Origin: a virus
Taxonomy: Duplodnaviria; Heunggongvirae; Uroviricota; Caudoviricetes
Reading direction: 5' to 3' (one strand)
Virus record (IMG/VR): IMGVR_UViG_2585427795_000005
DNA: 19,823 bases
Part shown: piece by piece, positions 1-19,823 of the stretch
Numbering within the stretch: position 1 is the first letter of the stretch
Layout of the letters: each line of letters opens with the position of its first letter
The notes under the pieces: generated by a model
What the model was told of the DNA's origin: nothing
The model's input: only the letters and a program-made list of their open reading frames with translations
Databases searched by the model: none
Program-made: the position numbers and the translations under genes

Positions 1-104
1 ATTTAGCACCGACGTAGCCCCACTGTTCGTCCATTTCAGCGCAGACAATCACATCACTGCCCGGTTGTATGCGCGAGGTTACCGACTGCGGCCTGAGTTT
101 TTTA
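1..104 (-). CDS. insB: IS1 insB, 5' portion only (rest lies outside the window), reached by -1 frameshift from insA
   Basis: Minus-strand frame downstream of the A6C slippery site translates [34 protein letters not shown], the InsB N-terminal region; boundaries approximate. Confidence 0.6.
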
Positions 105-354
105 AGTGACGTAAAACCGTGTTGAGGCCAACGCCCATAATGCGGGCAGTTGCCCGGCATCCAACGCCATTCATGGCCATATCAATGATTTTCTGGTGCG
201 TACCGGGTTGAGAAGCGGTGTAAGTGAACTGCAGTTGCCATGTTTTACGGCAGTGAGAGCAGAGATAGCGCTGATGTCCGGCGGTGCTTTTGCCGTTACG
301 CACCACCCCGTCAGTAGCTGAACAGGAGGGACAGCTGATAGAAACAGAAGCCAC
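79..354 (-). CDS. insA: IS1 InsA, transposition inhibitor / N-terminal part of the InsAB' transposase
   Basis: 91-aa translation [18 protein letters not shown]...LKNSGRSR matches the IS1 InsA sequence as I recall it; zinc-finger CxxC...CxxC plus HTH. Confidence 0.93.
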
Positions 355-382
355 TGGAGCACCTCAAAAACACCATCATACA

Positions 383-980
383 CTAAATCAGTAAGTTGGC
401 AGCATCACCGATGATGTTTATATATGACGCTATCAGCGATGAGTCATCACGACTATCCACTTCACAAGCCATTGCCCTGATGTAGTCGGCGCTGGCAACG
501 TTGTTGTATTCCGTCGCAAAGCAACAGAGTAACGTCAGAACATGCTCTGTCGTTATTTCGCTCCAATTGATGTTGAAAAATTCATCGCCTTTTTTATCGT
601 GTTCGGAATCGAAGATGCTTTGGTGGAGGATGTATTTGCCGGATTCCTTGCGCGGTAACTTGATTGCTTTCTGGCGTTCCAGCTCCTTATAAATCTGCAT
701 TGCCTCAATTAGTACCGGCCTGCCGTTCATGAAGGGATCGCGCAACCTTACACGCTGGCCAACTCGACCAGTAATAAAGCTGTTTTCCTCTTCCACCAGC
801 ACGATAAAACCCTTTTCCTCTTTTTCTCGCAATTCGCGCAGCAGCTGGAGTTCCATGTCGCGGCGGCGTTCAGGGTAGCTGGTCCGCTCAGCCATTATCA
901 GCTCGTTATTGATCCATGCAGCAGTCATTGACGCCGGTTTGCCGACGCTCATCGAAACAACGCATATTTTCTTATCCATA
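383..980 (-). CDS. Hypothetical backbone protein, 3' end truncated by the IS1 insertion; occupies the position I recall for P1 mat, downstream of ref
   Basis: ORF with ATG at 980 preceded by AGGGG (the track start at 1006 is GTG). The last eight codons (GDAANLLI, then stop at 383..385) are encoded by the IS1 terminal repeat, so the native C-terminus is lost. Confidence 0.5.
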
Positions 981-1167
981 GCGCCCCTACAAAAAAGAAA
1001 AGCCACCAGCGGCGGCTTAGCAATACAACTGAAGGTAGCGCCCGGTACTCAGACTGTGCCGTCCATGGAATATTTGAAAAGGGATCCATCCGTACCGGGC
1101 GTGTGATGATTCTGACTGAAGTCACTTGTCAGTTGTCAATCATTTATCATTAAAAATAATATATTTA

Positions 1168-1728
1168 TTAGTGCATGATGTTTGCCATCTCATAGGCGTC
1201 AGCCAGTAACTCCATCTCTGACTTGTTCAGCAGGGTGAATTCTTTCTTGCCTCCAACCACACCATCGGCATGAACAGGGACCAGCCAGGGGTATTTTGCT
1301 CTTACTTCAGCCGGTGCTGCATGCTGGTGGTGCCATCTACAAAGTGGCAATTGCTTTTTATGACAACCCGGCGCGGTACGACCAGCGATATGGTGCAGAG
1401 ACACCTCATTAGATATTACTCCATGCATATAGCAGGCAATGCAGGGGAGAGCGCCAAGAGCATTGGCGATGCGCCGTTCCTCCGCCGTTGGTGTTCTCCC
1501 CTTCAAGCCACGAGATTTTATTTTTACAGCGCTTTTCCGCGTTTTGCTGGCTGGTGGGCGCTCTTTCTGTTTAGCGATACGGCGGTCGATAGTATCTCGC
1601 ATTTTCTGATATTGAGATTCTCGCCAGACCGGATCAGCCAACTTCTCCCGTTGCCGAGCGATCGCTCGTTCTCTGGCTGCCTTCTGCCACTTGCGGCACT
1701 GTTCAATTTTTTGTTCGATTGTTTTCAT
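1168..1728 (-). CDS. ref: Ref, recombination enhancement function (HNH-type endonuclease)
   Basis: 186-aa translation MKTIEQKIEQCRKWQ...; Cys/His HNH-like motifs (CIACYMHG...HHIAG...CHKKQLPLCRWHH); size and position downstream of cre as in P1; C1 operator upstream. Confidence 0.85.
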   Translation of the reverse strand: MKTIEQKIEQCRKWQKAARERAIARQREKLADPVWRESQYQKMRDTIDRRIAKQKERPPASKTRKSAVKIKSRGLKGRTPTAEERRIANALGALPCIACYMHGVISNEVSLHHIAGRTAPGCHKKQLPLCRWHHQHAAPAEVRAKYPWLVPVHADGVVGGKKEFTLLNKSEMELLADAYEMANIMH

Positions 1729-1734
1729 ATGGTC

Positions 1735-1761
1735 AAAAAAAAGGCGGCCTAATGGCCGCCT
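1735..1761 (-). terminator. Intrinsic terminator-like hairpin plus T-run immediately upstream of the ref start codon
   Basis: Minus strand reads AGGCGGCC-ATTA-GGCCGCCT followed by TTTTTTTT, then GACCAT and the ATG of ref; 8-bp GC-rich stem. Confidence 0.5.
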
Positions 1762-1813
1762 ATGATGTCAAGGAGTTAAGTAATGGCACGTCTTCGTAGT
1801 TGACAAAAACTGC

Positions 1814-1843
1814 GGCTCAATTATAGCAATCAATTAGAGCAAT
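1814..1843 (-). promoter_or_regulatory. C1 repressor operator upstream of ref, with a weaker overlapping tandem site, and a -10 TATAAT
   Basis: Minus strand ATTGCTCTAATTGATTG (1827..1843, 14/17 to consensus) and ATTGCTATAATTGAGCC (1814..1830); minus-strand TATAAT at 1820..1825. Confidence 0.65.
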
Positions 1844-1909
1844 GGTAGATATTTTGTTTATCGCGAATCACATTTTTTCACTTCAGTACCTGTGTGCTAT
1901 ACTCCTTCT

Positions 1910-1920
1910 TGATTGATTGG
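1910..1920 (-). repeat. Copy 1 of a recurring 11-mer (minus strand CCAATCAATCA), followed by AAGGAG
   Basis: Exact 11-mer also at 3609..3619 and 16947..16957; here followed by AAGGAG ... GTGAAAAAATG, but the ATG is immediately followed by TGA. Confidence 0.6.
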
Positions 1921-1949
1921 ATGCGGAATACAAACCCGCTCTTTTGTGC

Positions 1950-1979
1950 AGCCTGGCTCCTTGCCAGGCTTTTTTTTAT
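1950..1979 (+). terminator. Rho-independent terminator on the plus strand, convergent with the cra-position ORF
   Basis: Plus strand AGCCTGGC-TCCTT-GCCAGGCT followed by TTTTTTTTAT. Confidence 0.45.
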
Positions 1980-2287
1980 TTCATCATGGAAGCTGTTAAC
2001 GCTTTGGACCTTGCTGAACTGATTGTGAGGGCTTTGTTAACGAGCCCCAGAAATTCGACAAACTCAGACATCACTTTACCAAGACCGCGCCGTGCTTCTT
2101 CCTCGGTGGCATTCATTACGAAATGTTCAGCACTACGCATACTTTTGACAGGAAACGCAACGGATATTGAGTCAATATCAGGCATTCTATCGCTCAGCTT
2201 TACAGTGACAATGACGGCTGGCGACTGAATATTAGTGCTTACAGACAGCACTACATATTTTCCGTCGATGTTGAAATCCTTTCTCAT
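1976..2287 (-). CDS. Hypothetical 103-aa protein at the position of P1 cra (cre-associated), directly downstream of cre
   Basis: ORF with GGTGG just upstream of the ATG; preferred over the overlapping plus-strand ORF 1917..2228, which starts at TTG and reads through the terminator hairpin. Identity with Cra is positional only. Confidence 0.5.
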   Translation of the reverse strand: MRKDFNIDGKYVVLSVSTNIQSPAVIVTVKLSDRMPDIDSISVAFPVKSMRSAEHFVMNATEEEARRGLGKVMSEFVEFLGLVNKALTISSARSKALTASMMK

Positions 2288-2303
2288 ATGCCACCATAAA
2301 TAT

Positions 2304-2320
2304 CAAATAATTAGAGCAAT
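2304..2320 (-). promoter_or_regulatory. C1 operator between the cre stop and the downstream ORF
   Basis: Minus strand ATTGCTCTAATTATTTG (14/17); minus-strand CATAAT -10-like hexamer directly upstream at 2323..2328. Confidence 0.6.
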
Positions 2321-2337
2321 TTATTATGCGTTGACGG

Positions 2338-3369
2338 CTAATCACCATCTTCCAGCAGGCGCACCATTGCCCCCGTTTCACTATCCAGATTACGGATATA
2401 GTTCATGACAATATTTACGTTGGTCCAGCCACCAGCTTGCATGATCTCCGGTATTGAAACTCCGGCGCGGGCCATATCTCGCGCGGCTCCGACACGGGCA
2501 CTGTGTCCAGACCAGGCCAGGTACCTCTGACCAGAGTCATCCTTAGCCCCGTAAATCAATCGGTGAGTTGCTTCAAAAATCCCTTCCAGGGCGCGAGTTG
2601 ATAGCTGGCTGGTGGATGATGGCGAGGCAACACCATTTTTTCTGACCCGGCAAAACAAGTAGTTATTCGGATCATCAGCCACACCAGAGACAGAAATCCA
2701 TCGCTCGACCAGTTTAGTTACCCCCAGGCTAAGTGCCTTCTCTACACCTGCGGTGCTAACCAGCGTTTTCGTTCTGCCAATATGGATTAACATTCTCCCA
2801 CCGTCAGTACGTGAGATATCTTTAACCCTGATCCTGGCAATTTCGGCTATACGTAACAGGGTGTTATAAGCAATCCCCAGAAATGCCAGATTACGTATAT
2901 CCTGGCAGCGATCGCTATTTTCCATGAGTGAACGAACCTGGTCGAAATCAGTGCGTTCGAACGCTAGTGCCTGTTTTGCACGTTCACCGGCATCAACGTT
3001 TTCTTTTCGGATCCGCCGCATGACCAGTGAAACAGCGTTGCTGTCACTTGGTCGTGGCAGCCCGGACCGACGATGAAGCATGTTTAGCTGGCCCAAATGT
3101 TGCTGGATAGTTTTTACTGCCAGACCGCGCGCCTGAAGATATAGAAGATAATCGCGAACATCTTCAGGTTCTGCGGGAAACCATTTCCGGTTATTCAACT
3201 TGCACCATGCCGCCCACGACCGGCAAACGGACAGAAGCATTTTCCAGGTATGCTCAGAAAACGCCTGGCGATCCCTGAACATGTCCATCAGGTTCTTGCG
3301 AACCTCATCACTCGTTGCATCGACCGGTAATGCAGGCAAATTTTGGTGTACGGTCAGTAAATTGGACAT
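2338..3369 (-). CDS. cre: Cre site-specific tyrosine recombinase
   Basis: 343-aa translation MSNLLTVHQNLPALPVDATSDEVRKNLMDMFRDRQAFSEHTWK...MVRLLEDGD is recognisably P1 Cre with a few substitutions; loxP lies about 410 bp upstream. Confidence 0.97.
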   Translation of the reverse strand: MSNLLTVHQNLPALPVDATSDEVRKNLMDMFRDRQAFSEHTWKMLLSVCRSWAAWCKLNNRKWFPAEPEDVRDYLLYLQARGLAVKTIQQHLGQLNMLHRRSGLPRPSDSNAVSLVMRRIRKENVDAGERAKQALAFERTDFDQVRSLMENSDRCQDIRNLAFLGIAYNTLLRIAEIARIRVKDISRTDGGRMLIHIGRTKTLVSTAGVEKALSLGVTKLVERWISVSGVADDPNNYLFCRVRKNGVASPSSTSQLSTRALEGIFEATHRLIYGAKDDSGQRYLAWSGHSARVGAARDMARAGVSIPEIMQAGGWTNVNIVMNYIRNLDSETGAMVRLLEDGD

Positions 3370-3376
3370 TTAACAC

Positions 3377-3598
3377 TCAGATAATGGTTTTAAGTAAAGT
3401 GTACAGGATCGGCTCTGCCTTTACCTGTTTATGGTTCTCGTCATAGAAACGCCAGCGACCGCGCGTGCGTTCTATTTTCTCTTCACCGCGCGATAATGAC
3501 AGTTGACAACTATCACAATCAAACCCTTTTGCCCGCCAGTAACCACGGTTTTTCTCAAGCTCAATATGAGTGGACACTTTAGCAGCTGAATATCCCAT
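3377..3598 (-). CDS. Possible small ORF (73 aa) in the cre upstream region
   Basis: ATG preceded by AGAGGTG and by the conserved CCAATCAATCA element; ends 8 bp before the cre start. I do not recall an annotated P1 gene here, so it may be regulatory sequence. Confidence 0.25.
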   Translation of the reverse strand: MGYSAAKVSTHIELEKNRGYWRAKGFDCDSCQLSLSRGEEKIERTRGRWRFYDENHKQVKAEPILYTLLKTII

Positions 3599-3608
3599 TT
3601 TTCACCTC

Positions 3609-3619
3609 TGATTGATTGG
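3609..3619 (-). repeat. Copy 2 of the recurring 11-mer (minus strand CCAATCAATCA-GAGGTGAAAAATG)
   Basis: Exact 11-mer; followed by an SD and the ATG of the 73-aa ORF. Confidence 0.6.
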
Positions 3620-3779
3620 TGGTGCTAAGTGCGCTACGCGAAATCTGGAGCACTAACACTGCCAACATTTCGCAGATTTTACGTAGCGCAACCTTGATCA
3701 AATGATCACTATTTGACCTGATAAGGTATTGAACTGTATGGATTTACAGGTAAATTGATCATGTTCAATAACCCTTAAG

Positions 3780-3813
3780 ATAACTTCGTATAATGTATGC
3801 TATACGAAGTTAT
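3780..3813. other. loxP: loxP recombination site
   Basis: Exact ATAACTTCGTATA-ATGTATGC-TATACGAAGTTAT (13-bp inverted repeats around an 8-bp spacer). Confidence 0.98.
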
Positions 3814-3856
3814 TAGGTCCGAAGAGGAGTTTACGTCCAGCTGCGCACAAAAATCA

Positions 3857-3873
3857 AGAATTATTAGAGCAAT
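3857..3873 (-). promoter_or_regulatory. C1 operator in the immC region between loxP and coi
   Basis: Minus strand ATTGCTCTAATAATTCT (14/17). Confidence 0.65.
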
Positions 3874-3939
3874 AAATTTTGAGAGAAAAATCCCACTCCA
3901 CCAGCTAAAAACTGGATTGTTTTTCATAGTTGTTTGACA

Positions 3940-3956
3940 ATTGCTCTAATAAATTA
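3940..3956 (+). promoter_or_regulatory. C1 operator in immC, overlapping a TTGACA -35-like hexamer
   Basis: Plus strand ATTGCTCTAATAAATTA (16/17); TTGACA at 3935..3940; divergent with the 3857..3873 site. Confidence 0.7.
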
Positions 3957-4194
3957 TAGTTTTGCCGACGTTACGTAATACGACTTTGGATTCACTATTT
4001 AATGTGTCTTCAGCGTTGTAGAGCGGCTCAGAAGGAAATGAGCAAACAGGGAAACCTTATACAACGGCATTACAGCTATGCATTGCTCATCTTACACACA
4101 GCGCAATGTTGTTAGATTACCCCAGCATGGATCATGGGTGAAACAGTAGGTCAGAGCTTCAGGCTCTGTGTTGTCAATACAGTGAGGCATAATT

Positions 4195-4404
4195 ATGGCT
4201 TTCATTCAACCAACCATCGACGACGTTAGACATTGCTCTAACGCTTTATCTGTAGACCCTGCCGAAACCGACGCTGCCCGCGCCATTGCTGAACACTACT
4301 CAAAGATATCCAATCAGGAGTACCGCATCACCCAAGACGACCTGGATGACCTCACTGACACAATCGAATATCTCATGGCAACTAACCAGTTAGACTCACA
4401 ATAA
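4195..4404 (+). CDS. coi: Coi-like C1 inactivator
   Basis: 69-aa ORF directly upstream of c1, with TGAGG 8 nt before the ATG; size and position match P1 Coi. The sequence itself is not independently recognised. Confidence 0.65.
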   Translation: MAFIQPTIDDVRHCSNALSVDPAETDAARAIAEHYSKISNQEYRITQDDLDDLTDTIEYLMATNQLDSQ

Positions 4405-4420
4405 ATGCACTAATAAATCT
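4404..4420 (+). promoter_or_regulatory. Weak C1-operator-like site between coi and c1
   Basis: AATGCACTAATAAATCT (14/17 by my count); a TATAAT hexamer lies downstream at 4442..4447. Confidence 0.35.
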
Positions 4421-4514
4421 ATTATTTTTGTTTGATCCCTCTATAATATAGGTCAGTAATGACCGGTTTTCTCAGCCGGGCGTTATTGACCATGTCAATT
4501 CTGGAGGAGGATCA

Positions 4515-5366
4515 ATGATAAATTATGTCTACGGCGAACAACTGTACCAGGAGTTCGTCAGCTTCAGGGATCTCTTTCTAAAAAAAGCTGTTGCACGCGC
4601 CCAACACGTTGATACAGCCAGCGACGGTCGTCCTGTACGCCCGGTTGTCGTTCTACCGTTCAAAGAAACTGACAGCATTCAGGCTGAAATTGATAAATGG
4701 ACTTTAATGGCGCGGGAACTGGAACAGTACCCAGACCTCAATATCCCAAAGACTATTTTATATCCAGTGCCTAACATCCTTCGCGGTGTGCGTAAGGTTA
4801 CAACTTATCAGACAGAGGCTGTGAACAGCGTCAACATGACCGCTGGCCGCATTATTCATCTGATTGATAAGGACATTCGCATCCAGAAAAGCGCGGGGAT
4901 CAATGAGCACAGTGCGAAATACATAGAGAACCTGGAAGCAACAAAAGAGCTAATGAAGCAGTACCCGGAGGATGAAAAATTCCGTATGCGTGTACACGGC
5001 TTTAGCGAAACAATGTTGCGCGTCCATTACATTTCCAGTAGCCCTAACTACAATGATGGTAAATCAGTTAGTTACCATGTGCCGCTGTGTGGTGTGTTTA
5101 TCTGCGATGAAACTCTCCGTGATGGAATCATCATCAACGGTGAATTCGAGAAAGCAAAATTTAGCCTTTATGACTCTATAGAACCGATCATCTGCGACCG
5201 CTGGCCGCAGGCAAAAATATATCGCCTGGCAGATATTGAAAATGTAAAAAAACAAATTGCCATCACTCGCGAAGAGAAAAAGGTCAAATCAGCCGCATCA
5301 GTTACGCGCAGCCGTAAAACTAAGAAGGGGCAGCCAGTAAACGACAACCCCGAAAGCGCGCAATAG
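4515..5366 (+). CDS. c1: C1 repressor of lysis (primary immunity repressor)
   Basis: 283-aa translation MINYVYGEQLYQEFVSFRDLFLKKAVARAQHVD...; strong GGAGGAGG SD; its cognate operator consensus recurs through the window. Confidence 0.9.
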   Translation: MINYVYGEQLYQEFVSFRDLFLKKAVARAQHVDTASDGRPVRPVVVLPFKETDSIQAEIDKWTLMARELEQYPDLNIPKTILYPVPNILRGVRKVTTYQTEAVNSVNMTAGRIIHLIDKDIRIQKSAGINEHSAKYIENLEATKELMKQYPEDEKFRMRVHGFSETMLRVHYISSSPNYNDGKSVSYHVPLCGVFICDETLRDGIIINGEFEKAKFSLYDSIEPIICDRWPQAKIYRLADIENVKKQIAITREEKKVKSAASVTRSRKTKKGQPVNDNPESAQ

Positions 5367-5390
5367 TTTCTATCCGGCATGGTCAATGAG

Positions 5391-6875
5391 TTATTCATTA
5401 AGCCATGCCAGAGCTTCATCAACCTGCGCTTCGTCTTCGACGCTAAGCACTTCATCCTGGGGAACATAATCCGCCAGCATAGCGAAACAATATGTATCCC
5501 AATGGTCTGGTGAGTGCAGGTTGAGTTTTTTCTTCATATCCTCCTTACTCATCACCTTCCATTGACCTGCGGAGTTAATCCCTACAGGGATTTTCGACGC
5601 TTCCTCAATAGTTTCATTACCCTTATCCAGTCTCATACGACCAGATTTTACGGCCTCTGCGGCTTGAACGTTGGCATAAGCACGTTTATCAAAGTACAGG
5701 CTCTTATCCTCACGGCTATGCATCTTTTTACCCCAGCGTATACGCTGTACGGTAATACCATAATACTCGTACATCAGATCCGCTGTTGCTTTACCCAGGC
5801 CATCGCCGTCTATCGCTATGGTGATATTTGGGAATCGCTCAGGATTACATTCTGCGAAAATTTTGGCGGCAAGCTGCGTTTCTGTAACGTCTGTGTATTC
5901 CAGCATTCGATAGTTGATTACACGGCGTTTGTTTCGCTGGCCGGACACCATCATGATATTGATAACGGACTTATCCCTTCCCGTACCACCAGCAACGTCT
6001 ACACATGCAAGCCAGCCCCATCCTTTGGCAATCTTGACTTTCCGCCGCGTTGCACGTTCAACCTCATCACGTCCAAGAAGGAAGCCATCCTGTGATTTAG
6101 GGAATAGGCCGCGTACCTTAATCATGTACATAGGGTTATCGCGCCCGCCGTACTCCGCCAGCTTCATTTTGATAAATGCTGGCGTTACCAGCGGTGATTC
6201 CTCACTGTTAAGCGTGATCGCCGTATAAACGCCATCAGGGTTACCAGGACGCTTGGCCAGTTTATGGTGAGTATCGTAGAAATAGCCGCTTGGGCGTGTA
6301 GGCTGTGACAGTAATAAGATGCGGTTATCCTGTCCGGTAAGAGCACCGGTGATGATACCGAAAGCTCTATCACTGACACCGGAGGCTTCATCGATAATAT
6401 ACAGAAGATGATCTGCGTGTTCACCGGCGAGAGCTTCTTCACTTCCCAGACGAAAGCCCTTCGGCACTACAGTCCATACACCTTTACCAGTAACCTCATA
6501 GAAAGCGGTTTCTGTCAGAACAAAATAATCAGCAAGCCATGGAAAACGGCTGGTGGCAGTAGCCCAGTTTATCTTGATGTACTTGAAAATACCGGTCATT
6601 ACCTGCTGAATTTTGTTCGCAACGATAATGGCGCGGGCACCGGGATACATGATTATGAACAACATGATCATGATAGAAGTCATGTCTGATTTTCCGGTAC
6701 CGTGACCAGACGAAACAGATGTCTTGCTACCCTGTTCCTGCACAGACTCAATAATCAGATCCTGCTGCCAGGTAGGTGTTTTGCCGAACAAAACATCAGC
6801 GGCCGCAATCCAGTCATAACGATATAGCGCCACCAGCTCGCGCCAACGTGGATCCGTTACGCAACTTCTGGCCAT
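5391..6875 (-). CDS. pacB: PacB, terminase large subunit
   Basis: 494-aa ORF translationally coupled to pacA (TAATG overlap at 6875); convergent with c1 as in P1. Confidence 0.88.
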
Positions 6876-8068
6876 TAATCATCATCCCCGTATAGCTTGC
6901 GGGTAACTTCTTCGTCTTCCTCCTCGTCTTCGTCCAGGTCTTGTTCCAGCCATGGGTCGTTTGATACACCTTCAGTATCAACATCTCCATAACCGCCTGT
7001 ATCAACGATATCGGCGATTTCTTCCCTACGCTGCTCAATCCACAATGCGGCATCGGCGCGGCGGTTGGCGGCCCGTTCTCGCGCAACTTTGTCCAGATCT
7101 TCAAGAGAAGGGCCACCGACGGCTGTTTGCCTTTCCTCATCATCGGTATTGGTCTTAGGAGCACGCAGATCGGCTTTGATTTGCTCCAGCATCAGGGGCG
7201 GCACTTTCCCGCCATGCGCCTCGATGAATTCAGCTGCTTCCAGCACTGACCAGTTATTTTCACGCTTTCGTTCGTATGCCAGCTTAACAATGCCAGCTTG
7301 CCCCATAGACAAAGCGTGCTTTTCCGCCTCCCGGCTTTCTTTTCGATAGTTATTCCGGATGCTGTAAATGGTGTTGATCAGGCTGCTTATCTGCGCGGAA
7401 CAGCTGTTTAGCATGCTCGCGATACGGTATTCAGGCGGAGTACCTTCATCATCGTCTTTTTGCTGATCGCGCATTTCCTGCACCAGGCGAATACACGTAT
7501 CCCTGGCGTTCTCCAGCATAAGGAGATGAGAAAGAGACTTTTCAAGAAGAGTGGTTTCCAGAACATCGGCCCCGGACCGACGCAACATAGCGCGCGCGGC
7601 CTTCCGCGCTTCAACGTTATCTATCAGGTAATCGCCAGCTTCGAATTCAAAGCGTTCACCATCATCATCCAGGGTGTCGCGTTCCAGGCGATCACGTAAG
7701 GTCCGGTGGGCGCGGGTGATCACGTCATGATCATCTGAACGATCATTTATGCGCTTATTTTGGCGCTTCGCATTCTCGACTGCGGCACTGATAACGGCAT
7801 TAACTCTCTGTTTTTCCGCTATTTCAGCCGCAATATGATCACCTGCATGTTGATCATTAGAGTGATCAATGATCATGCTTTTTAGTGGCTTCCTGACTGG
7901 CTTATTTGGCTTGCGGCTGTCCGCAGTCCTGGTGTCTTCTTTGAAGGCACGGAGATAACGACGTGCGGTATTAGGGTTAAGATTAAACTCGGCGGCATAC
8001 TGTGCGATGGTGTAACCACCATCTCGCGCCAGGCGAGCAAAATTCTTCTTGTGATCGTCCCAGGTCAC
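6875..8068 (-). CDS. pacA: PacA, terminase small subunit / pac recognition protein
   Basis: 397-aa ORF with GTG start preceded by AGGAAG; N-terminal HTH-like region; acidic C-terminal tail; the pac site lies inside the coding sequence. Confidence 0.88.
7717..7875. other. pac: pac packaging site: seven TGATCA/G hexamers (three plus four) in about 160 bp, each carrying a Dam GATC
   Basis: Hexamers at 7717, 7728, 7740 (CGATCA) and 7826, 7851, 7863, 7870; an additional CGATCA at 7689 lies outside. Confidence 0.85.
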
Positions 8069-8153: not shown

Positions 8154-8606
8154 TCAGATACGTGCGGATGTGGCATTACCGTAATGACGGTGCTGACGGG
8201 CCACCCTATTGAAAAGTTGACGCGCCATTACCCAAGGCTGGTGCTCCCGGCGTTCCTTTTCGTCCTGCGTCATATAGAGTTCGTTCTGGAGTTTTTCATC
8301 AAACCGGCGCGGAGCGCGGCTACGGCGAAAGAATTCAGGATTCAGAGAGTGGATCTGAAATCTACGTGGGCGTGTACTGTCATCAATCAAAACAGACGAA
8401 TACTTAGACACAGCGATAGCCTTTAAGCGCAGATAAACATCGCGCTTATCGACATCCAGATGCGGGTATTCCTTTTCAAGAATTGCTGCGAGTTCTTTCG
8501 CTGATAGAAGAGATTTAGTGCGGATCATGTAATCCGCAATCTCGTACGATGTTATTCGTGAGTGATTTATTTCCATGAAGTGGCGTCCCTGCCAGTTAAG
8601 TAACAT
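8154..8606 (-). CDS. lpa: Lpa-like late promoter activator (P1 gene 10 position)
   Basis: 150-aa ORF immediately upstream of pacA; AGGTGA SD; minus-strand TTGACA at 8630..8635 and a C1 operator at 8677..8693 upstream. Identification is positional. Confidence 0.65.
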   Translation of the reverse strand: MLLNWQGRHFMEINHSRITSYEIADYMIRTKSLLSAKELAAILEKEYPHLDVDKRDVYLRLKAIAVSKYSSVLIDDSTRPRRFQIHSLNPEFFRRSRAPRRFDEKLQNELYMTQDEKERREHQPWVMARQLFNRVARQHRHYGNATSARI

Positions 8607-8694: not shown

Positions 8695-9738
8695 TTATCT
8701 AACACTCGACGAATGACTTGTGATAGCGCCGACTCCAAGCGCGTAATCAAAGAACAATCGTTGATGCATCGCCAGCCTACCGTGCGTCTTCTCCCAATTA
8801 TCGCGGTCACGCTCAATATCACGCTGGCATGACTGGCACAGAGGAATAGCATAAATGTCATGCGCGCATAATCGACTATGACGAACGATATAAGGCGTAA
8901 TGTGAGCGCCAGCTCCCGCAGCTCCACAGCCACAGCATGGACGGGAAGCCACAAAGTCCATGTACTCGGGCAATTTTAGCGATTGAAGTTTTGGTATCTT
9001 GAAATGCGCCATACCTGGGTCGGAGTCAACATCCACAGGGCATACTTTTGCACGCATCGGCGCGGCGCGTTCTTCCATCATCTGAACATATGCTGTAGCG
9101 CGATCGTCATACGGGCGAATATCCGCCTCTTTCAGAGGTCCGCTATCCTGCGGAGTAGCCTTCATCTTATTTATTGATATGCGGCAGACTTCTTCCGGCA
9201 TCAGGTGCATCATGTTGCGCATGAAAGCCCACCAGCACAGCTCCTGAATACTTAAATCATGGCTATTTGAAAGGCCCATTTCCTGACGGGCGACATCCAG
9301 TATCCAGTTAACGCGATTATTGTGCAGCGTTTCTTTCAGCTCATTAAAACCACGCATCCGGTAATGGTTATCGTGATGCCAGCACAACAACACCGCGCTA
9401 TTGTCTCGTTCAGCGTGGACAATATGGTTGTCACACCAACTACGATCTGCGGCCTGGCATTGACCCTCTTTCCTACGCAACCACGCCACCAGCGCGTCAA
9501 TTCCACCAATACGGCGAAACAGTTCATCGCTGTTAAAAAACGGCTGCAACGCCTCATTTGTTGCCATGGTTTGCTCGGTAACAACGAGGCCGTCTTCCAT
9601 GTGCTCGATTAACTCACGCGGCACCGGCTCCATAATAAATTTACGGCCAGCCTCCACCAGCTTTCTGACCTCCTGATCCACTTTGAACGTGGCGAGGCCA
9701 AGCTCTTTCTGTACAAAGGGAGTAATTACGGCTTTCAC
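8695..9738 (-). CDS. Hypothetical Cys/His-rich protein (347 aa) between doc and lpa; possible metal-binding or HNH-like nuclease motifs
   Basis: Long ORF with GTG start preceded by AAGGTG; motifs [10 protein letters not shown]...CWHHDNH and RPCCGCG...H...LCAHD...LCQSCQ. Confidence 0.6.
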
Positions 9739-9949: not shown

Positions 9950-10330
9950 CTACTCCGCGGAACCATACAATCTACGTAACGTGTCGGCGACAGAAGATAC
10001 AGATATCTCTCCGGTCGCAGCCCCTACGGTAAGGTCTGCCAGTTCAGGTGAATCAAATACCTGCACCCCGTTACGGCGTAGAAATAACAGCGCACTGTTT
10101 AGCGCGGTACGCTTATTGGCATCATTGAATATATGCCCTCTCGCTGTAGCCACCAGGTAGGTGGCGGAGACTTCGAAAAGGTCGGTGATCTCTTCGTAGG
10201 CAACTCTGGCCTGAACTCTCCCGATAATGGCCTCTGCCCTACCTGGATCTGACATTCCCGGCAGGCCGCCGTAGCGGTTTATATTCGCATCATGAAGCGC
10301 AATAAGTTCTTCCGGTGATATATGCCTCAT
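9950..10330 (-). CDS. doc: Doc toxin (death on curing), Fic-fold kinase
   Basis: 126-aa translation [33 protein letters not shown]...; overlaps the phd stop by 1 nt. Confidence 0.92.
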
Positions 10331-10551
10331 TATCGGTTAACCAGTTCCTTGTTGGTGGAGTCCAGGGTGTCAAACAGGGATGCAAATTCAGCATCCAGCG
10401 CCGCTTTTTTGTAGGCTTCGAAAGTAGCCTTGCTGACAATTACTGCTGGCTCACGGCCTCTGCGGGTGATTTCAACCTCTTCCCCGGCCTCAACATTGTT
10501 GAGCACTTCAGAAAGGTTGCCGCGCGCGGTACGGAAGTTAATGGATTGCAT
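10330..10551 (-). CDS. phd: Phd antitoxin (prevents host death)
   Basis: 73-aa translation [39 protein letters not shown]...; GAGGT SD. Confidence 0.92.
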
Positions 10552-10727: not shown

Positions 10728-12286
10728 ATGAAAATGACAAGTATTCAACAACGTGCAGAGCTTCATCGTCAAATCTGGCAAATTGCTAACGATGTCAGAG
10801 GTTCGGTCGATGGATGGGATTTTAAGCAATACGTTCTGGGCGCGCTTTTCTACCGTTTTATCAGCGAAAATTTTTCCAGCTATATTGAAGCCGGTGATGA
10901 CAGCATCTGTTATGCGAAACTGGATGACAGCGTAATTACTGATGACATTAAAGACGATGCCATCAAAACCAAAGGCTACTTCATCTACCCAAGTCAGCTT
11001 TTCTGCAACGTAGCTGCGAAAGCAAATACCAATGACAGACTGAATGCAGATTTAAACAGCATCTTCGTTGCTATCGAAAGTTCTGCTTACGGTTACCCTT
11101 CAGAAGCTGACATCAAAGGTTTGTTTGCTGATTTCGATACCACCAGTAACCGCCTGGGTAACACCGTTAAGGATAAAAATACCCGCCTGGCCGCGGTTCT
11201 GAAAGGGGTTGAAGGATTAAAACTTGGCGACTTCAACGAACATCAGATTGACCTGTTCGGCGATGCCTATGAGTTCCTGATTTCTAACTATGCGGCGAAT
11301 GCCGGTAAGTCCGGCGGCGAGTTCTTTACACCGCAGCACGTCTCTAAGCTGATTGCACAACTGGCAATGCACGGCCAGACCCACGTTAACAAAATCTACG
11401 ACCCGGCAGCAGGTTCCGGTTCGCTGTTGTTGCAGGCTAAAAAACAGTTTGATGACCATATCATCGAAGAAGGCTTTTTTGGTCAGGAGATCAACCATAC
11501 GACCTATAACCTGGCGCGTATGAACATGTTTTTGCACAACATCAACTACGACAAGTTTGATATCAAGTTGGGCAATACGCTGACTGAGCCGCACTTCAGA
11601 GATGAAAAACCGTTTGATGCCATCGTTTCTAACCCGCCGTATTCGGTGAAATGGATTGGCAGCGATGACCCGACGCTGATTAACGATGAACGTTTTGCCC
11701 CGGCTGGCGTTCTGGCCCCCAAATCCAAAGCTGACTTTGCGTTTGTATTACATGCGCTGAACTATCTTTCTGCCAAAGGTCGTGCTGCGATTGTCTGCTT
11801 CCCGGGCATTTTTTACCGTGGCGGCGCGGAGCAGAAAATCCGTCAGTATCTGGTTGACAATAACTATGTCGAAACCGTGATTTCACTGGCACCGAACCTG
11901 TTCTTTGGCACCACCATTGCCGTAAATATTCTGGTGCTGTCTAAACATAAAACGGATACCAAAGTTCAGTTTATTGACGCCAGCGAACTGTTCAAAAAAG
12001 AGACTAACAACAACATCCTGACCGATGCCCATATCGAAAAAATTATGCAGGTATTTTCCAGCAAAGAAGATGTTGCCCATCTGGCAAAATCTGTCGCGTT
12101 TGAGGCCGTTGTCGCGAATGACTATAACCTGTCAGTGAGCAGCTATGTAGAAGTGAAAGATAACCGCGAAACTATCGATATTGCTGAGCTAAATGCTGAG
12201 CTGAAAACCACGGTCAGCAAAATCGACCAGTTGCGTAAAGATATTGATGCGATTGTGGCTGAAATTGAAGGCTGCGAGGTGCAGAA

Positions 12287-12290
<4 letters not shown>
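10728..12290 (+). CDS. hsdM: Type I restriction-modification methyltransferase subunit HsdM (type IC, EcoR124-like)
   Basis: 520-aa ORF with AdoMet motif DPAAGSG and catalytic NPPY; overlaps hsdS by ATGA. The true start may be the second ATG at 10734. Confidence 0.93.
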
Positions 12291-13528
<1,238 letters not shown>

Positions 13529-13649
13529 TTGACCATTATTACAGACCGAACCATCGTAACATCCGGTCTGTATATAGACTATTTTTTACGCGCCGGAAGT
13601 CACTCTTAACGCCTTTCCGGCCCTTGCCAGGCGGCACAAAGGATGCGCT

Positions 13650-16600
13650 ATGACTCATCAAACACACACCATTGCTGAATCCAATAACTTTATCGTCCTT
13701 GATAAGTACATCAAAGCTGAGCAAACAAGCGACAGCTACCAGAGCGAATCGGACCTGGAACGTGAACTGATTCAGGACCTGCGGAATCAGGGTTATGAAT
13801 TTATTTCCGTAAAATCACAGTCGGCAATGCTGTCTAATGTTCGGGAACAGCTTCAGAGCCTCAATGGTGTGATGTTTAATGACAGCGAGTGGCGGCGCTT
13901 CACGGAGCAGTATCTGGACAACCCCAGCGATGGTATTCTGGATAAAACCCGTAAAATCCATATCGACTATATCTGCGACTTTATTTTTGACGACGGGCGA
14001 CTTGAGAACATCTATTTGATAGATAAAAAGAATCTCATGCGCAATAAGGTGCAGATTATCCAGCAGTTTGAACAGACGGGTTCTCATGCTAACCGTTATG
14101 ACGTCACGATCCTGGTTAATGGTTTACCGCTGGTGCAAATCGAACTAAAAAAACGCGGGGTGGCGATTCGTGAGGCTTTCAACCAGATACATCGTTACAG
14201 TAAAGAGAGTTTTAACAACGAAAATTCCCTGTTTAAGTATCTGCAACTGTTTGTCATTTCTAACGGCACCGATACCCGTTATTTTGCCAACACGACAAAG
14301 CGCGATAAAAACAGTTTTGACTTCACCATGAATTGGGCGAAATCAGACAATACGCTGATTAAAGACCTCAAAGACTTTACCGCTACCTTTTTCCAGAAAC
14401 ATACTCTGCTGAATGTTCTGGTGAACTACAGCGTTTTTGACAGTAGTCAGACGCTACTGGTGATGCGACCGTACCAGATTGCCGCCACCGAGCGCATTCT
14501 GTGGAAAATTAAGAGTTCCTTTACAGCGAAGAACTGGTCAAAACCGGAAAGCGGTGGGTATATCTGGCACACTACCGGTTCTGGTAAAACCCTCACCAGC
14601 TTTAAAGCCGCGCGTCTGGCAACAGAGCTGGACTTTATTGATAAAGTCTTCTTTGTGGTCGACAGGAAAGACCTCGATTACCAGACCATGAAGGAATATC
14701 AGCGTTTTTCGCCAGACAGCGTCAACGGCTCGGAAAATACCGCAGGCCTTAAACGAAATCTGGATAAGGACGATAACAAAATTATCGTCACTACTATTCA
14801 GAAACTCAATAACCTGATGAAAGCAGAAAGCGACCTGCCTGTATACAATCAGCAAGTGGTGTTTATATTTGATGAATGTCACCGCAGCCAGTTTGGAGAA
14901 GCGCAGAAAAACCTGAAGAAGAAATTCAAACGCTATTATCAGTTTGGTTTTACCGGCACCCCTATTTTCCCGGAAAATGCCTTAGGCTCAGAAACGACCG
15001 CCAGCGTATTTGGTCGTGAATTGCATTCGTATGTAATTACCGATGCGATTCGTGATGAAAAAGTGCTCAAATTCAAGGTGGACTACAACGATGTGCGGCC
15101 ACAGTTTAAGTCTTTAGAGACAGAAACTGACGAGAAAAAACTAAGTGCGGCTGAAAATCAGCAGGCGTTTCTTCATCCCATGCGTATACAGGAAATCACG
15201 CAATATATTCTGAATAATTTCCGCCAGAAAACCCACCGCACCTTCCCTGGCTCAAAAGGTTTTAATGCTATGTTGGCAGTGAGCAGCGTGGATGCTGCAA
15301 AAGCCTATTACGCGGCGTTTAAACGGTTACAAGAGGAAGCAGCTAATAAATCGGCTACCTATAAACCGCTGCGTGTTGCGACAATCTTCTCCTTTGCTGC
15401 CAATGAAGAACAAAATGCCATTGGTGAAATTTCCGATGAAACTTTTGATACCAGCGCAATGGACAGCAGTGCTAAAGAGTTTCTTGACGCTGCAATTCGT
15501 GAGTATAACAGCTATTTTAAAACTAACTTCAGCACCGACGGTAACGGTTTTCAGAACTACTATCGCGATTTAGCCCAACGGGTTAAAAATCAGGATATCG
15601 ATCTGTTAATTGTCGTGGGGATGTTTTTAACTGGCTTCGATGCTCCAACATTGAACACGCTATTCGTCGATAAAAACCTGCGTTTTCACGGCTTGATGCA
15701 GGCATTTTCCCGCACCAACCGTATTTATGATGCAACTAAAACCTTCGGTAATATCGTCACTTTCCGGGATCTGGAACGCTCAACTATTGATGCCATAACG
15801 CTGTTTGGTGACAAAAACACCAAAAATGTGGTTTTAGAAAAGAGTTATGCAGAGTATATGGAAGGCTTTACTGATGCTGCCACTGGTGAAGCTAAGCGCG
15901 GCTTTATGGCAGTAGTTTCAGAACTGGAACAACGGTTCCCTGACCCTGCCAGTATTGAAAGTGAAAAAGAGAAGAAAGACTTCGTTAAACTGTTTGGTGA
16001 ATACCTGCGTGCCGAGAACATCCTGCAAAACTATGATGAATTTGCCACGCTGAAAGCCCTGCAACAAATCGATCTTAGCGATCCTGTTGCAGTAGAAAAA
16101 TTCAAAGCAGAACATTATGTGGATGATGAAAAGCTCGCTGAATTGCAAACAATTCGTCTCCCTGCTGATCGCAAGATTCAGGATTATCGTTCTGCCTATA
16201 ACGATATTCGCGACTGGCAGCGCCGTGAGAAAGAAGCTGAGAAAAAAGAGAAATCAACCACTGACTGGGATGACGTAGTTTTTGAGGTCGATTTGCTGAA
16301 GTCTCAGGAAATAAACCTGGATTATATCCTTGGACTGATTTTCGAACACAACAGACAAAATAAAGGCAAGGGCGAAATGATCGAAGAGGTTAAACGCTTA
16401 ATTCGTTCAAGCCTAGGGAACCGTGCTAAAGAGGGCCTGGTGGTCGATTTTATTCAGCAAACGAACCTGGATGATTTACCGGACAAAGCCAGCATCATTG
16501 ACGCATTCTTTACGTTTGCTCAACGCGAACAGCAACGTGAAGCAGAAGCATTGATAAAAGAAGAAAATCTCAATGAAGATGCAGCAAAACGCTATATTCG

Positions 16601-16766
16601 CACGTCTTTAAAACGCGAATATGCCACAGAAAATGGCACAGAATTAAACGAAACATTACCAAAACTTAGTCCGTTGAATCCGCAATATAAAACGAAAAAA
16701 CAGGCAGTTTTCCAGAAAATCGTCTCGTTTATTGAGAAGTTTAAAGGCGTAGGCGGAAAAATATAG
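13650..16766 (+). CDS. hsdR: Type I R-M restriction subunit HsdR (type IC)
   Basis: 1038 aa; nuclease motif region (D...IELK), Walker A TGSGKT, DECH box; AAAGGA SD; separated from hsdS by a 121-bp gap consistent with its own promoter. Confidence 0.93.
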
Positions 16767-17014: not shown

Positions 17015-17031
17015 TGATTTATTAGAGCAAT
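17015..17031 (-). promoter_or_regulatory. C1 operator upstream of the 28-aa ORF
   Basis: Minus strand ATTGCTCTAATAAATCA (15/17), followed by TTTAAAAC; overlaps the stop codon of the upstream ORF. Confidence 0.65.
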
Positions 17032-17537
17032 TATTGTTGATGAAGAAGCGCATTTTCATACTCCCTGACCATTAACGTAAGCACGCCGTGCCTCCTGAAA
17101 ACACGCGCCACTTCAATCTTATCTTCCAGCGCGAACGCAATTTTGCTTATACCAATTTTCTTAAGGAGATCAATCTTTGCTGGGCCGTCATTTCTGTCAT
17201 CGGTGGCAGGACGCATAGATAGCAAAGGCTCAGCCCCGTTTGTTACGTACTTCCGCAGCCAGGCTCGTGTTTTATCCCTTGCGATCTCACAGCGCCCGGT
17301 TACAAACCAGACCGTGTAAACGTTAAATAACTGGCGCACCATATCAATAACTGGAGTGATTGGAGTATCGGTGTCACAGGCGAGATTAAACTCGTTCCAG
17401 TCCTTTGTTAATGCACCTTTACCTGGTGGCGGAAGCAAATGCAGTCTGTCTTCAGTTGCCTCTGATATTGTTCCATCAATATCGACTATGACGATATACG
17501 GACGTTCCTGGTGTGCATGTTTATTGAAAATACTCAA
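17031..17537 (-). CDS. HAD-superfamily phosphatase-like protein (168 aa), possibly a polynucleotide 3'-phosphatase or acid phosphatase
   Basis: HAD motif I IVIVDIDGT (DxDGT), motif II VWFVTGR, lysine and DD motifs (ARDKTRAW, ATDDRND); TTG start 4 nt after a strong AGGAGG SD. Confidence 0.6.
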   Translation of the reverse strand: MSIFNKHAHQERPYIVIVDIDGTISEATEDRLHLLPPPGKGALTKDWNEFNLACDTDTPITPVIDMVRQLFNVYTVWFVTGRCEIARDKTRAWLRKYVTNGAEPLLSMRPATDDRNDGPAKIDLLKKIGISKIAFALEDKIEVARVFRRHGVLTLMVREYENALLHQQ

Positions 17538-17609: not shown

Positions 17610-18725
17610 TCAGCGGACGTAAATAGTGCCGCCGTTCTCTTTTTCCCATGCATCGCTACGTGCATAGCAAACATCGAGAAGTCTTCTTGCCGCTGTTTCC
17701 TCTAAACCCAATTCGACAACCAACTGCTCATGACGGCGGGTAACCACATCAAACAGAGTATGCAACCCTTTAGTTGCCAGATCATCAATGAATTCCGGTT
17801 CGAACGGCAGCTCTGCATCTGCCAACATAACCTCTTGCGCCCACTCAACTCGACGGACCAATTCCGGGCGGCGGCTTTCCATCTCTTTACAGATCAATTC
17901 ATGGAAGAACTCTACCCAACCTTCCGGCTGGAACTCGCGGAAAATGGCCAACGGCTGGAAGTTTGGCATCAACCATTCGTTGATTCGGATATCAATGGCA
18001 TAGCCCATGTCGCAGCAGAACTGATAAGCAAAGTCCAGCTTAGAAACGATATAAGGACGCTCGTTATTGAACTCTTTAGGCGATGAGATCCCATAAGCCA
18101 GGAGGCGCGGGAAGAAGGAGATTTGCCCTAACGTCGGATGAAGTTTGCTTGCAGGGAAACGGCGCTCAGTAATGCCATACATTTCCTTCTTGAGCGTCGC
18201 AAATTTGGCATTCTCATTAACCAGCGCGGTAACCTCTGCTTTTTTATTAGCAAATGCCACGCGCGCTTCGCTTGCATCTTTAATAGTTTTTTTGAGCTGT
18301 TGGTTAAGGTCGGCGACCTGCTTACGCAGTTCCTGTCGCTCGCTTTTAGCTTTGTTATAGCGTTTCTCAAGGTTAAAAGGATCAAGTTTCATGATCTCTT
18401 TATATTGAGATTTTAGCGTTGAAATCTGTGAGTTCCGCAGTTCAACCATCGCGGTCATTTCATTGAGTTTTGTTTCCAGCTCAATGCTTATACGTTCGGC
18501 ATTATCAGCACGCTGGTTGGCGTCATGCGTCGCATCGTCGATCGCGTCCTGTTGCTGGCGTTTCAAATGTTCAATTTGCAGCTGAAGCTCTTCAATTTCT
18601 TTACCCTTCAGACCGAGATCCAACTGCATATTTTCAGCTGCATCTACCAGGGAGTTATGGCTATCAGCTTCTGCGTTATAAACATCAATAAGCTGTGCGT
18701 GAAGCATCTCCGCTGACTGAACCAC
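17610..18725 (-). CDS. Hypothetical protein (371 aa): N-terminal coiled-coil region and an uncharacterised C-terminal domain
   Basis: Long ORF; N-terminal half rich in heptad-like E/K/Q/L segments. Start uncertain (GTG at 18725 or ATG at 18707, neither with a good SD). Confidence 0.6.
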   Translation of the reverse strand: MVQSAEMLHAQLIDVYNAEADSHNSLVDAAENMQLDLGLKGKEIEELQLQIEHLKRQQQDAIDDATHDANQRADNAERISIELETKLNEMTAMVELRNSQISTLKSQYKEIMKLDPFNLEKRYNKAKSERQELRKQVADLNQQLKKTIKDASEARVAFANKKAEVTALVNENAKFATLKKEMYGITERRFPASKLHPTLGQISFFPRLLAYGISSPKEFNNERPYIVSKLDFAYQFCCDMGYAIDIRINEWLMPNFQPLAIFREFQPEGWVEFFHELICKEMESRRPELVRRVEWAQEVMLADAELPFEPEFIDDLATKGLHTLFDVVTRRHEQLVVELGLEETAARRLLDVCYARSDAWEKENGGTIYVR

Positions 18726-18873
18726 ATTATCAAAAAAACGTGCTGTGAGGTCATCACAACTAACGCGGCGTTGCGCGGCCCGGATGTTCTGGATAATGGC
18801 CGGGATACCGGCATTCAGGACATCAGGGATAGATACATTTTCGATTGATTGCTTTTATGCTGAAGTGCTCATT

Positions 18874-19092
18874 TCAAAGTTCCGTATTAGCTTGTGCTTC
18901 GGTCATTTTTCCTAAGTATGAAGGAGGAAGGACTACGCAATTTGTATCCAGTCCCTCACCTATGGCAGCCTGTAAAATTCTGGCTAAGGTGAGTCTCTTG
19001 TTGCGATACCTGGTGATGACATGCCTGATACCGCCGGTCGGTGTAACAAAGGCGATCAGCCAGTAGTGATATTTCCGTCGGAATGGCCACAT
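18874..19092 (-). CDS. Hypothetical small protein (72 aa), first gene downstream of a paired C1 operator
   Basis: ATG preceded by AAGGTG; no alternative upstream start in frame. Confidence 0.35.
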   Translation of the reverse strand: MWPFRRKYHYWLIAFVTPTGGIRHVITRYRNKRLTLARILQAAIGEGLDTNCVVLPPSYLGKMTEAQANTEL

Positions 19093-19172: not shown

Positions 19173-19383
19173 ATTATTCTGATTCTTGCTCAAAAAACGC
19201 GCTAATGAGAGGAAGCCAATCCTCTGACACTTCACGCGGTCGCGGTTTGCCATGGAAGAAGATTATTCGGCAGTCTTTTGGTAATGCCCCATTCCCCCTG
19301 GAGTAGCGCGCACTTGCATATTTCGAACCAGGTTCCACAACATCGGCCTTGTAACTTACAAACCATCCCGGATACAGATCCTG

Positions 19384-19823
19384 GGTAATGACTCCAACTT
19401 ATTGATAGTGTTTTATGTTCAGATAATGCCCGATGACTTTGTCATGCAGCTCCACCGATTTTGAGAACGACAGCGACTTCCGTCCCAGCCGTGCCAGGTG
19501 CTGCCTCAGATTCAGGTTATGCCGCTCAATTCGCTGCGTATATCGCTTGCTGATTACGTGCAGCTTTCCCTTCAGGCGGGATTCATACAGCGGCCAGCCA
19601 TCCGTCATCCATATCACCACGTCAAAGGGTGACAGCAGGCTCATAAGACGCCCCAGCGTCGCCATAGTGCGTTCACCGAATACGTGCGCAACAACCGTCT
19701 TCCGGAGCCTGTCATACGCGTAAAACAGCCAGCGCTGGCGCGATTTAGCCCCGACGTATCCCCACTGTTCGTCCATTTCCGCGCAGACGATGACGTCACT
19801 GCCCGGCTGTATGCGCGAGGTTA
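19384..19823 (-). mobile_element. IS1 insertion sequence, second partial copy (continues right of the window), a divergent isoform
   Basis: Terminal repeat GGTAATGACTCCAACTTATTGATAGTG from 19384; InsB ORF on the minus strand; same orientation as the left copy. Confidence 0.93.
19399..19823 (-). CDS. insB: IS1 InsB (transposase catalytic part), 5' end outside the window
   Basis: Translation ...[125 protein letters not shown]. Confidence 0.9.

Follow-up and report, generated by a model that had tools for sequence, protein, structure and literature searches.

In phage P1, the gene mat, annotated as maturation control, ends at position 3468 and is followed by the convergent gene res (3544..6456) and then by mod. 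This res-mod pair is a published variable region (RD-1, or region A) that is missing from many P1-like plasmids and is often replaced by other open reading frames (Venturini et al. 2019, PMC6906374; PMC9603915). In the P1-like elements pEcoUTI1e (NZ_CP049847.1), pSCKLB684-mcr (NZ_MH781719.1), and Punavirus P1 MH422554.1, a DUF2971 gene, lxc, and ulx come after mat, and neither IS1 nor res/mod is found there. P1 itself carries a resident IS1 (isaA-IS1-isaB, P1 22626..23393). The hsd loci of EcoR124I and EcoDXXI are flanked by P1 DNA, and the P1 GenBank record notes that exactly the flanks of the site between pap and phd are homologous to DNA around EcoDXXI and R124/3 hsd.

We analyzed a 19,823-nt stretch of P1-like DNA, referred to below as the window, in which an IS1 copy adjoins the open reading frame (ORF) downstream of ref. 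An earlier note on this DNA had taken the arrangement to fit the loss of an ancestral type III restriction-modification system through an adjacent deletion caused by IS1. Our comparison indicates instead that it is probably a strain-specific simple insertion of IS1 into the mat gene of a phage-plasmid from the DUF2971-carrying P1-like lineage.

The P1-like segment and its two IS1 copies

The window is a segment of a P1-like phage-plasmid, and the positions of cre and c8 fix its orientation as reversed relative to the P1 map. It corresponds to essentially one whole draft contig from Escherichia coli (GCA_000713095.1), with both ends inside IS1. The NCBI contig, JORH01000161.1 (19,832 nt), differs from it by 2 nt in 10,979 and extends 117 nt deeper into the left IS1. 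The following features were assigned.

1..409, minus strand: partial IS1, left copy (IS1 nt 1-409; IRL terminus 387..409)
383..979, minus strand: fusion ORF of truncated mat and IS1, 198 aa (translation; alignment with intact Mat)
1168..1728, minus strand: ref, RecA-dependent nuclease (Pfam PF16786 RecA_dep_nuc, E 3e-51; P1 synteny)
1976..2287, minus strand: c8 (P1 comparison)
2338..3369, minus strand: cre (Pfam Phage_integrase; P1 annotation)
4515..5366, plus strand: c1 (P1 comparison)
5391..8068, minus strand: pacB and pacA (P1 comparison)
8154..8606, minus strand: lpa (P1 comparison)
8695..9738, minus strand: pdcB (P1 comparison)
9950..10551, minus strand: doc and phd (P1 comparison)
10728..12290, plus strand: hsdM (Pfam domains)
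12287..13528, plus strand: hsdS, 413 aa (EcoR124 S subunit match; Pfam)
13650..16766, plus strand: hsdR (EcoR124I HsdR match; Pfam)
17031..17537, minus strand: pap (P1 comparison)
17610..18872, minus strand: pmgS (P1 comparison)
18874..19092, minus strand: pmgR (P1 comparison)
19174..19383, minus strand: 3' remnant of pmgQ, last 69 codons and stop (matches P1 PmgQ from Q165)
19384..19823, minus strand: partial IS1, right copy (IRR terminus 19384; 3' part of insB; Pfam DDE_Tnp_IS1)

The left IS1 ends at position 409, with its terminal repeat GGTGATGCTGCCAACTTACTGAT on the minus strand at 409..387. It contains a complete insA (79..354) encoding a 91-aa InsA with PF03811 and PF12759, and the start of insB, which runs into the window edge. 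Over 409 nt it is 97 to 98% identical to known IS1 copies; compared with IS1A copies and the IS1 of P1 it has 12 to 13 mismatches, and it is a divergent isoform. This divergence may be the reason that the draft assembly read 409 to 526 nt into the left copy. The right IS1, which begins at 19384 and had been missed by the earlier note, is the common IS1A: its 440 nt are the same as in copies from CP098997.1 and pYLPD4b (100% identity). The two copies share the same orientation and differ at 7 of the 81 nt that they have in common. Given these mismatches, and the 100% identity of the right copy to IS1A compared with 97% for the left, we conclude that they are independent insertions. The same mismatches in the 81-nt overlap rule out that the two ends belong to a single IS1 on a circular 19-kb contig.

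P1's resident IS1 belongs to the same insertion sequence family as the left copy, and the two differ in site, in orientation relative to mat, which is opposite, and in sequence (97% rather than approximately 100% identity). An adjacent deletion starting from the resident IS1 is rejected, since the IRL of the left copy faces mat, in the opposite orientation, and the sequence is different. The window stops inside IS1 at both ends because the draft assembly broke within both copies. The view is therefore limited by the edge of the window rather than by a deletion, and the lack of res/mod in the window is uninformative about the far side of the left IS1.

The junction between mat and IS1

The minus-strand ORF at 383..1006 reads through SYINII directly into GDAANLLI and a stop, with the C-terminal translation SYINIIGDAANLLI*. 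Its GTG at 1006 is only a mechanical ORF start; the likely start of mat is the ATG at 979 (MDKKICVV), which is the one annotated in most relatives. Counted from there, mat codons 1 to 190 occupy 979..410, and IS1 contributes codons 191 to 198 (409..386) and the stop (385..383). Thus, as had been noticed earlier, the terminal repeat ending at 409 supplies GDAANLLI and the stop codon to an ORF that has ref upstream of it. That a P1 backbone gene is truncated also holds, and alignment to P1, which the earlier note had proposed for locating the breakpoint, identifies the gene as mat itself, which the note had missed. The ORF is not intact relative to its P1 homologue, and IS1 does sit where P1 has res.

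The breakpoint at 409..410 lies between nt 570 and 571 of a 642-nt mat allele. The flank adjoining the IRL is the 9-bp GATGATGTT, and IS1-free relatives all align from window position 410 on, with up to 100% identity. With IS1 placed between codons 190 and 191 of an allele whose intact copies encode 213 aa, 23 C-terminal codons have been lost. Residues 1 to approximately 161 of Mat are identical in all six aligned Mat sequences, that of P1 included, and the truncated protein is 87 to 96% identical overall to intact Mat proteins. The motif VPxGxLTGKxNxF/L, found at the C-terminal end of each of the four intact Mat alleles aligned, is absent from the truncated protein.

The fusion protein is recorded at NCBI as KEM33527.1/WP_072005723.1 (annotated as "maturation control protein"), and it is present both there and in an independent Logan assembly, on 2 to 4 contigs, all of 10 to 20 kb. 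The exact IS1-mat junction had no match in phages, PLSDB plasmids, or 5,426 complete E. coli genomes, nor in IMG/VR, GTDB genome, or JGI metagenome contigs. Because no other record in the searched collections shows the junction, the insertion event is strain specific.

Mat function has likely been lost through the truncation, and Mat is probably impaired because the conserved C-terminal 23 residues are gone. mat was listed as essential from earlier genetics, and CRISPRi knock-down of P1 mat brought plating down only to 0.28 and was scored as nonessential (PMC10695390); the consequence of the truncation for the phage is therefore uncertain.

Two more lesions were observed in genes annotated in P1 with a putative morphogenetic function, pmgS and pmgQ. 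Where P1, pSCKLB684-mcr, and CP027133.1 have CAA at codon 6 of pmgS (18855..18857), the window has TAA, a nonsense codon; the longest ORF left in the gene restarts at a GTG and encodes 371 aa. The right IS1 cuts pmgQ in frame at codon 164/165, and relatives align up to 19383. This junction is absent from PLSDB, where there was no plasmid match in a single piece; in several P1-like plasmids an IS1 lies ∼540 bp further into pmgQ/ppp. The three lesions together (mat cut, pmgS nonsense, pmgQ cut) suggest a decaying prophage, one that may be unable to make infectious particles. phd-doc and the type IC restriction-modification genes are still kept in the element.

Ancestral cargo beside mat

Megablast homology to P1 ends at window position 459, and DUF2971-type relatives continue to 410. 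The 3' segment of mat at 410..458 (49 nt) is identical to the allele in pEcoUTI1e, pSCKLB684-mcr, and MH422554, and in a DNA alignment it differs at many positions from the res-linked allele of P1. In PLSDB, the 3' end of DUF2971, the intergenic spacer, and the mat tail are contiguous in 85 of approximately 88 records with this mat allele, and 3 of the approximately 88 plasmids do not show a contiguous DUF2971 end; all other matches to the DUF2971-mat tail probe cover at most 13% of it. The allele is thus linked to DUF2971. The P1-type mat-res junction was found in only 56 of approximately 560 plasmids with a mat match, and other relatives carry a gene with a RelA/SpoT domain or an EAL domain in the mat-lxc slot. 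Since the mat tail is of the DUF2971-linked allele and unlike the res-linked one, the ancestor most likely carried DUF2971, not res-mod, between mat and lxc.

The reading we favor, that of a simple IS1 insertion into mat in this DUF2971 lineage, runs as follows. The host element belongs to the P1-like lineage that has DUF2971, and no res-mod, in the mat-lxc slot and whose EcoR124-like hsd genes lie between phd and pap. A divergent IS1 isoform transposed into mat at codon 190/191, and translation of mat now continues for 8 codons in the left inverted repeat of IS1 before it stops. A second and unrelated IS1 copy interrupts pmgQ at a distance of 19 kb. If a simple insertion is assumed from its prior frequency, DUF2971 and the tail of mat would still lie on the far side of IS1. 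Such an insertion would show ...TTGAGTTTTCTTGATGATGTT preceding the IS1 IRR GGTAATGACTCCAAC, the GATGATGTT repeat, the 72-nt mat tail, and DUF2971.

IS1 generates adjacent deletions, and its insertion could have been accompanied by loss of the mat tail and of neighbors other than a type III system (DUF2971, possibly lxc, ulx, darB, and more). We consider this possible, though clearly less likely than an insertion alone. The far side of the left IS1 lies beyond the end of the contig, and the element shows other decay in the pmgS nonsense codon and the cut in pmgQ. In addition, a search for the predicted reciprocal fusion, PmgQ(1-167) followed by GDAANLLI, returned nothing that had the predicted length and coverage, and so gave no positive sign of an intact remainder; neither this search nor one with the DUF2971 protein led to contigs of GCA_000713095.1. 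However, nothing observed speaks positively for such a deletion, simple insertions are commoner, and the obvious donor is a misfit, as the orientation of the left IS1 is opposite to that of P1's resident IS1.

Very improbable is the deletion proposed in the earlier note, in which an EcoP1I-type res-mod would have lain beside mat and been removed by IS1. In its favor, res immediately follows mat in P1, the plasmid CP098997.1 combines a type IC locus with an IS1 that separates mat from a res truncated at its 3' end, and it is correct that type III res/mod is absent from the window: tblastn for remnants of res, mod, and DUF2971 gave only E values of at least 0.2 (best, 0.23), and blastn, including with P1 3469..9750, gave no match. 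Nevertheless, mat 410..458 belongs to the allele that goes with DUF2971 in 85 of approximately 88 records and is unlike the res-linked allele; in CP098997.1 the end of mat is P1-type and IS1 occupies another site, within res; and the slot is variable, with res-mod absent from most P1-like plasmids (PMC6906374, PMC9603915; mat-res junction in 56 of the approximately 560 plasmids noted above). We therefore do not retain the proposed loss of a type III system. The least probable explanation, a chimeric join at a repeat during assembly, would suit a short-read draft contig with both ends in IS1, but the contig reads 409 to 526 nt into an IS1 isoform distinct from the common IS1A, the same fusion protein occurs in NCBI and in the independent Logan assembly, the 2-nt difference in 10,979 between window and NCBI contig fits separate assemblies, and the junction coincides precisely with the end of IS1.

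Comparison with known systems

The type IC system that had been noted elsewhere in the element is an EcoR124-type hsdMSR locus on the plus strand at 10728..16766, between phd and pap, where it replaces pmgT-humD of P1. HsdR matches EcoR124I HsdR over its full length (1-1038; 2273 bits). HsdS matches the EcoR124 specificity subunit with 286 bits in three conserved stretches only; as just these conserved parts match, the target recognition domains presumably differ, and with them the specificity. As the P1 GenBank record notes, this site has flanks homologous to those of the EcoDXXI and R124/3 hsd loci, and pSCKLB684-mcr has a type IC hsd locus at the same place. At least 80% of the window, type IC locus included, is covered in 153 plasmids. 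The locus co-occurs with DUF2971, with the RelA/SpoT gene, and with res-mod (CP098997.1), and since it is present with any content of the mat-lxc slot, it is independent of that slot. We reject a replacement of type III by type IC, as the loci lie in different hot spots, that of the type IC genes having long been known, and both are present in CP098997.1.

The last ∼50 codons of mat (window 410..∼540) vary among P1-like plasmids and covary with the cargo between mat and lxc, as compared in loci L001, L003, L005, L010, and L011 with the cargos res-mod, DUF2971, RelA/SpoT, and EAL. This covariation places the recombination boundary of RD-1 inside mat and not after it. That the exchanged mat-lxc cassettes include the last ∼50 mat codons is the only mildly new detail here. 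The DUF2971 protein (L003:7821-8831) matches the PADLOC candidate defense family PDC-S31 (E 2.7e-16), and the RelA/SpoT-domain protein (L005:7653-8780) matches PDC-S33 (E 8e-86); with res-mod as a further cargo, these matches make the slot look like a defense hot spot. One could go further and suppose that the slot is an exchange site for defense genes whose cassettes always carry their own last ∼50 mat codons, and that the Mat C terminus is functionally matched to the cargo, beyond hitchhiking at a recombination boundary. We regard this as improbable; if it were true, the IS1 cut would uncouple maturation control from the cargo.

Taken as a whole, the event is an ordinary strain-specific IS1 insertion, in a gene already known from a well-described family of phage-plasmids and beside a known variable region, and beyond correct annotation it has little significance. 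The case does illustrate that a P1 gene set missing from a P1-like plasmid is not to be read as a deletion, that a draft-contig window ending inside an insertion sequence gives no basis for claims about the DNA beyond, and that in the res-mod exchange hot spot the allele of the neighboring mat end indicates the cargo of the ancestor.

The nearest real example of the IS1/type III arrangement imagined in the earlier note is CP098997.1 (region 110109..113223), a plasmid of E. coli RHB46-C05, which encodes a type III mod-res pair, with res annotated as 2424 nt compared with 2913 nt in P1. Its backbone is P1-like, as in the window; it too carries the type IC hsd genes, and an IS1 copy lies within its mat-lxc slot. 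It differs from the window in having res-mod, in the position of IS1 (the 3' end of res), and in an uninterrupted mat with the P1-type allele.

P1 Mat (AAQ13981.1 in AF234172) has the same position downstream of ref and the same first ∼161 residues as the protein described here. The two differ in the last ∼50 codons, which here are those of another allele, and in the final 23, which 8 IS1-encoded codons replace. The slot concerned is the one directly downstream of mat that was described as RD-1, for which the boundary was set after the mat stop (P1 3,469) (PMC6906374, PMC9603915); here, by contrast, the exchange includes the last ∼50 codons of mat. The three elements with which we began have the same mat allele in its intact 213-aa form, followed by DUF2971, lxc, and ulx: pSCKLB684-mcr is 97.5% identical to the window, MH422554.1 is 97.4% (over 410..2001), and pEcoUTI1e is 100% identical to it over 410..3400.
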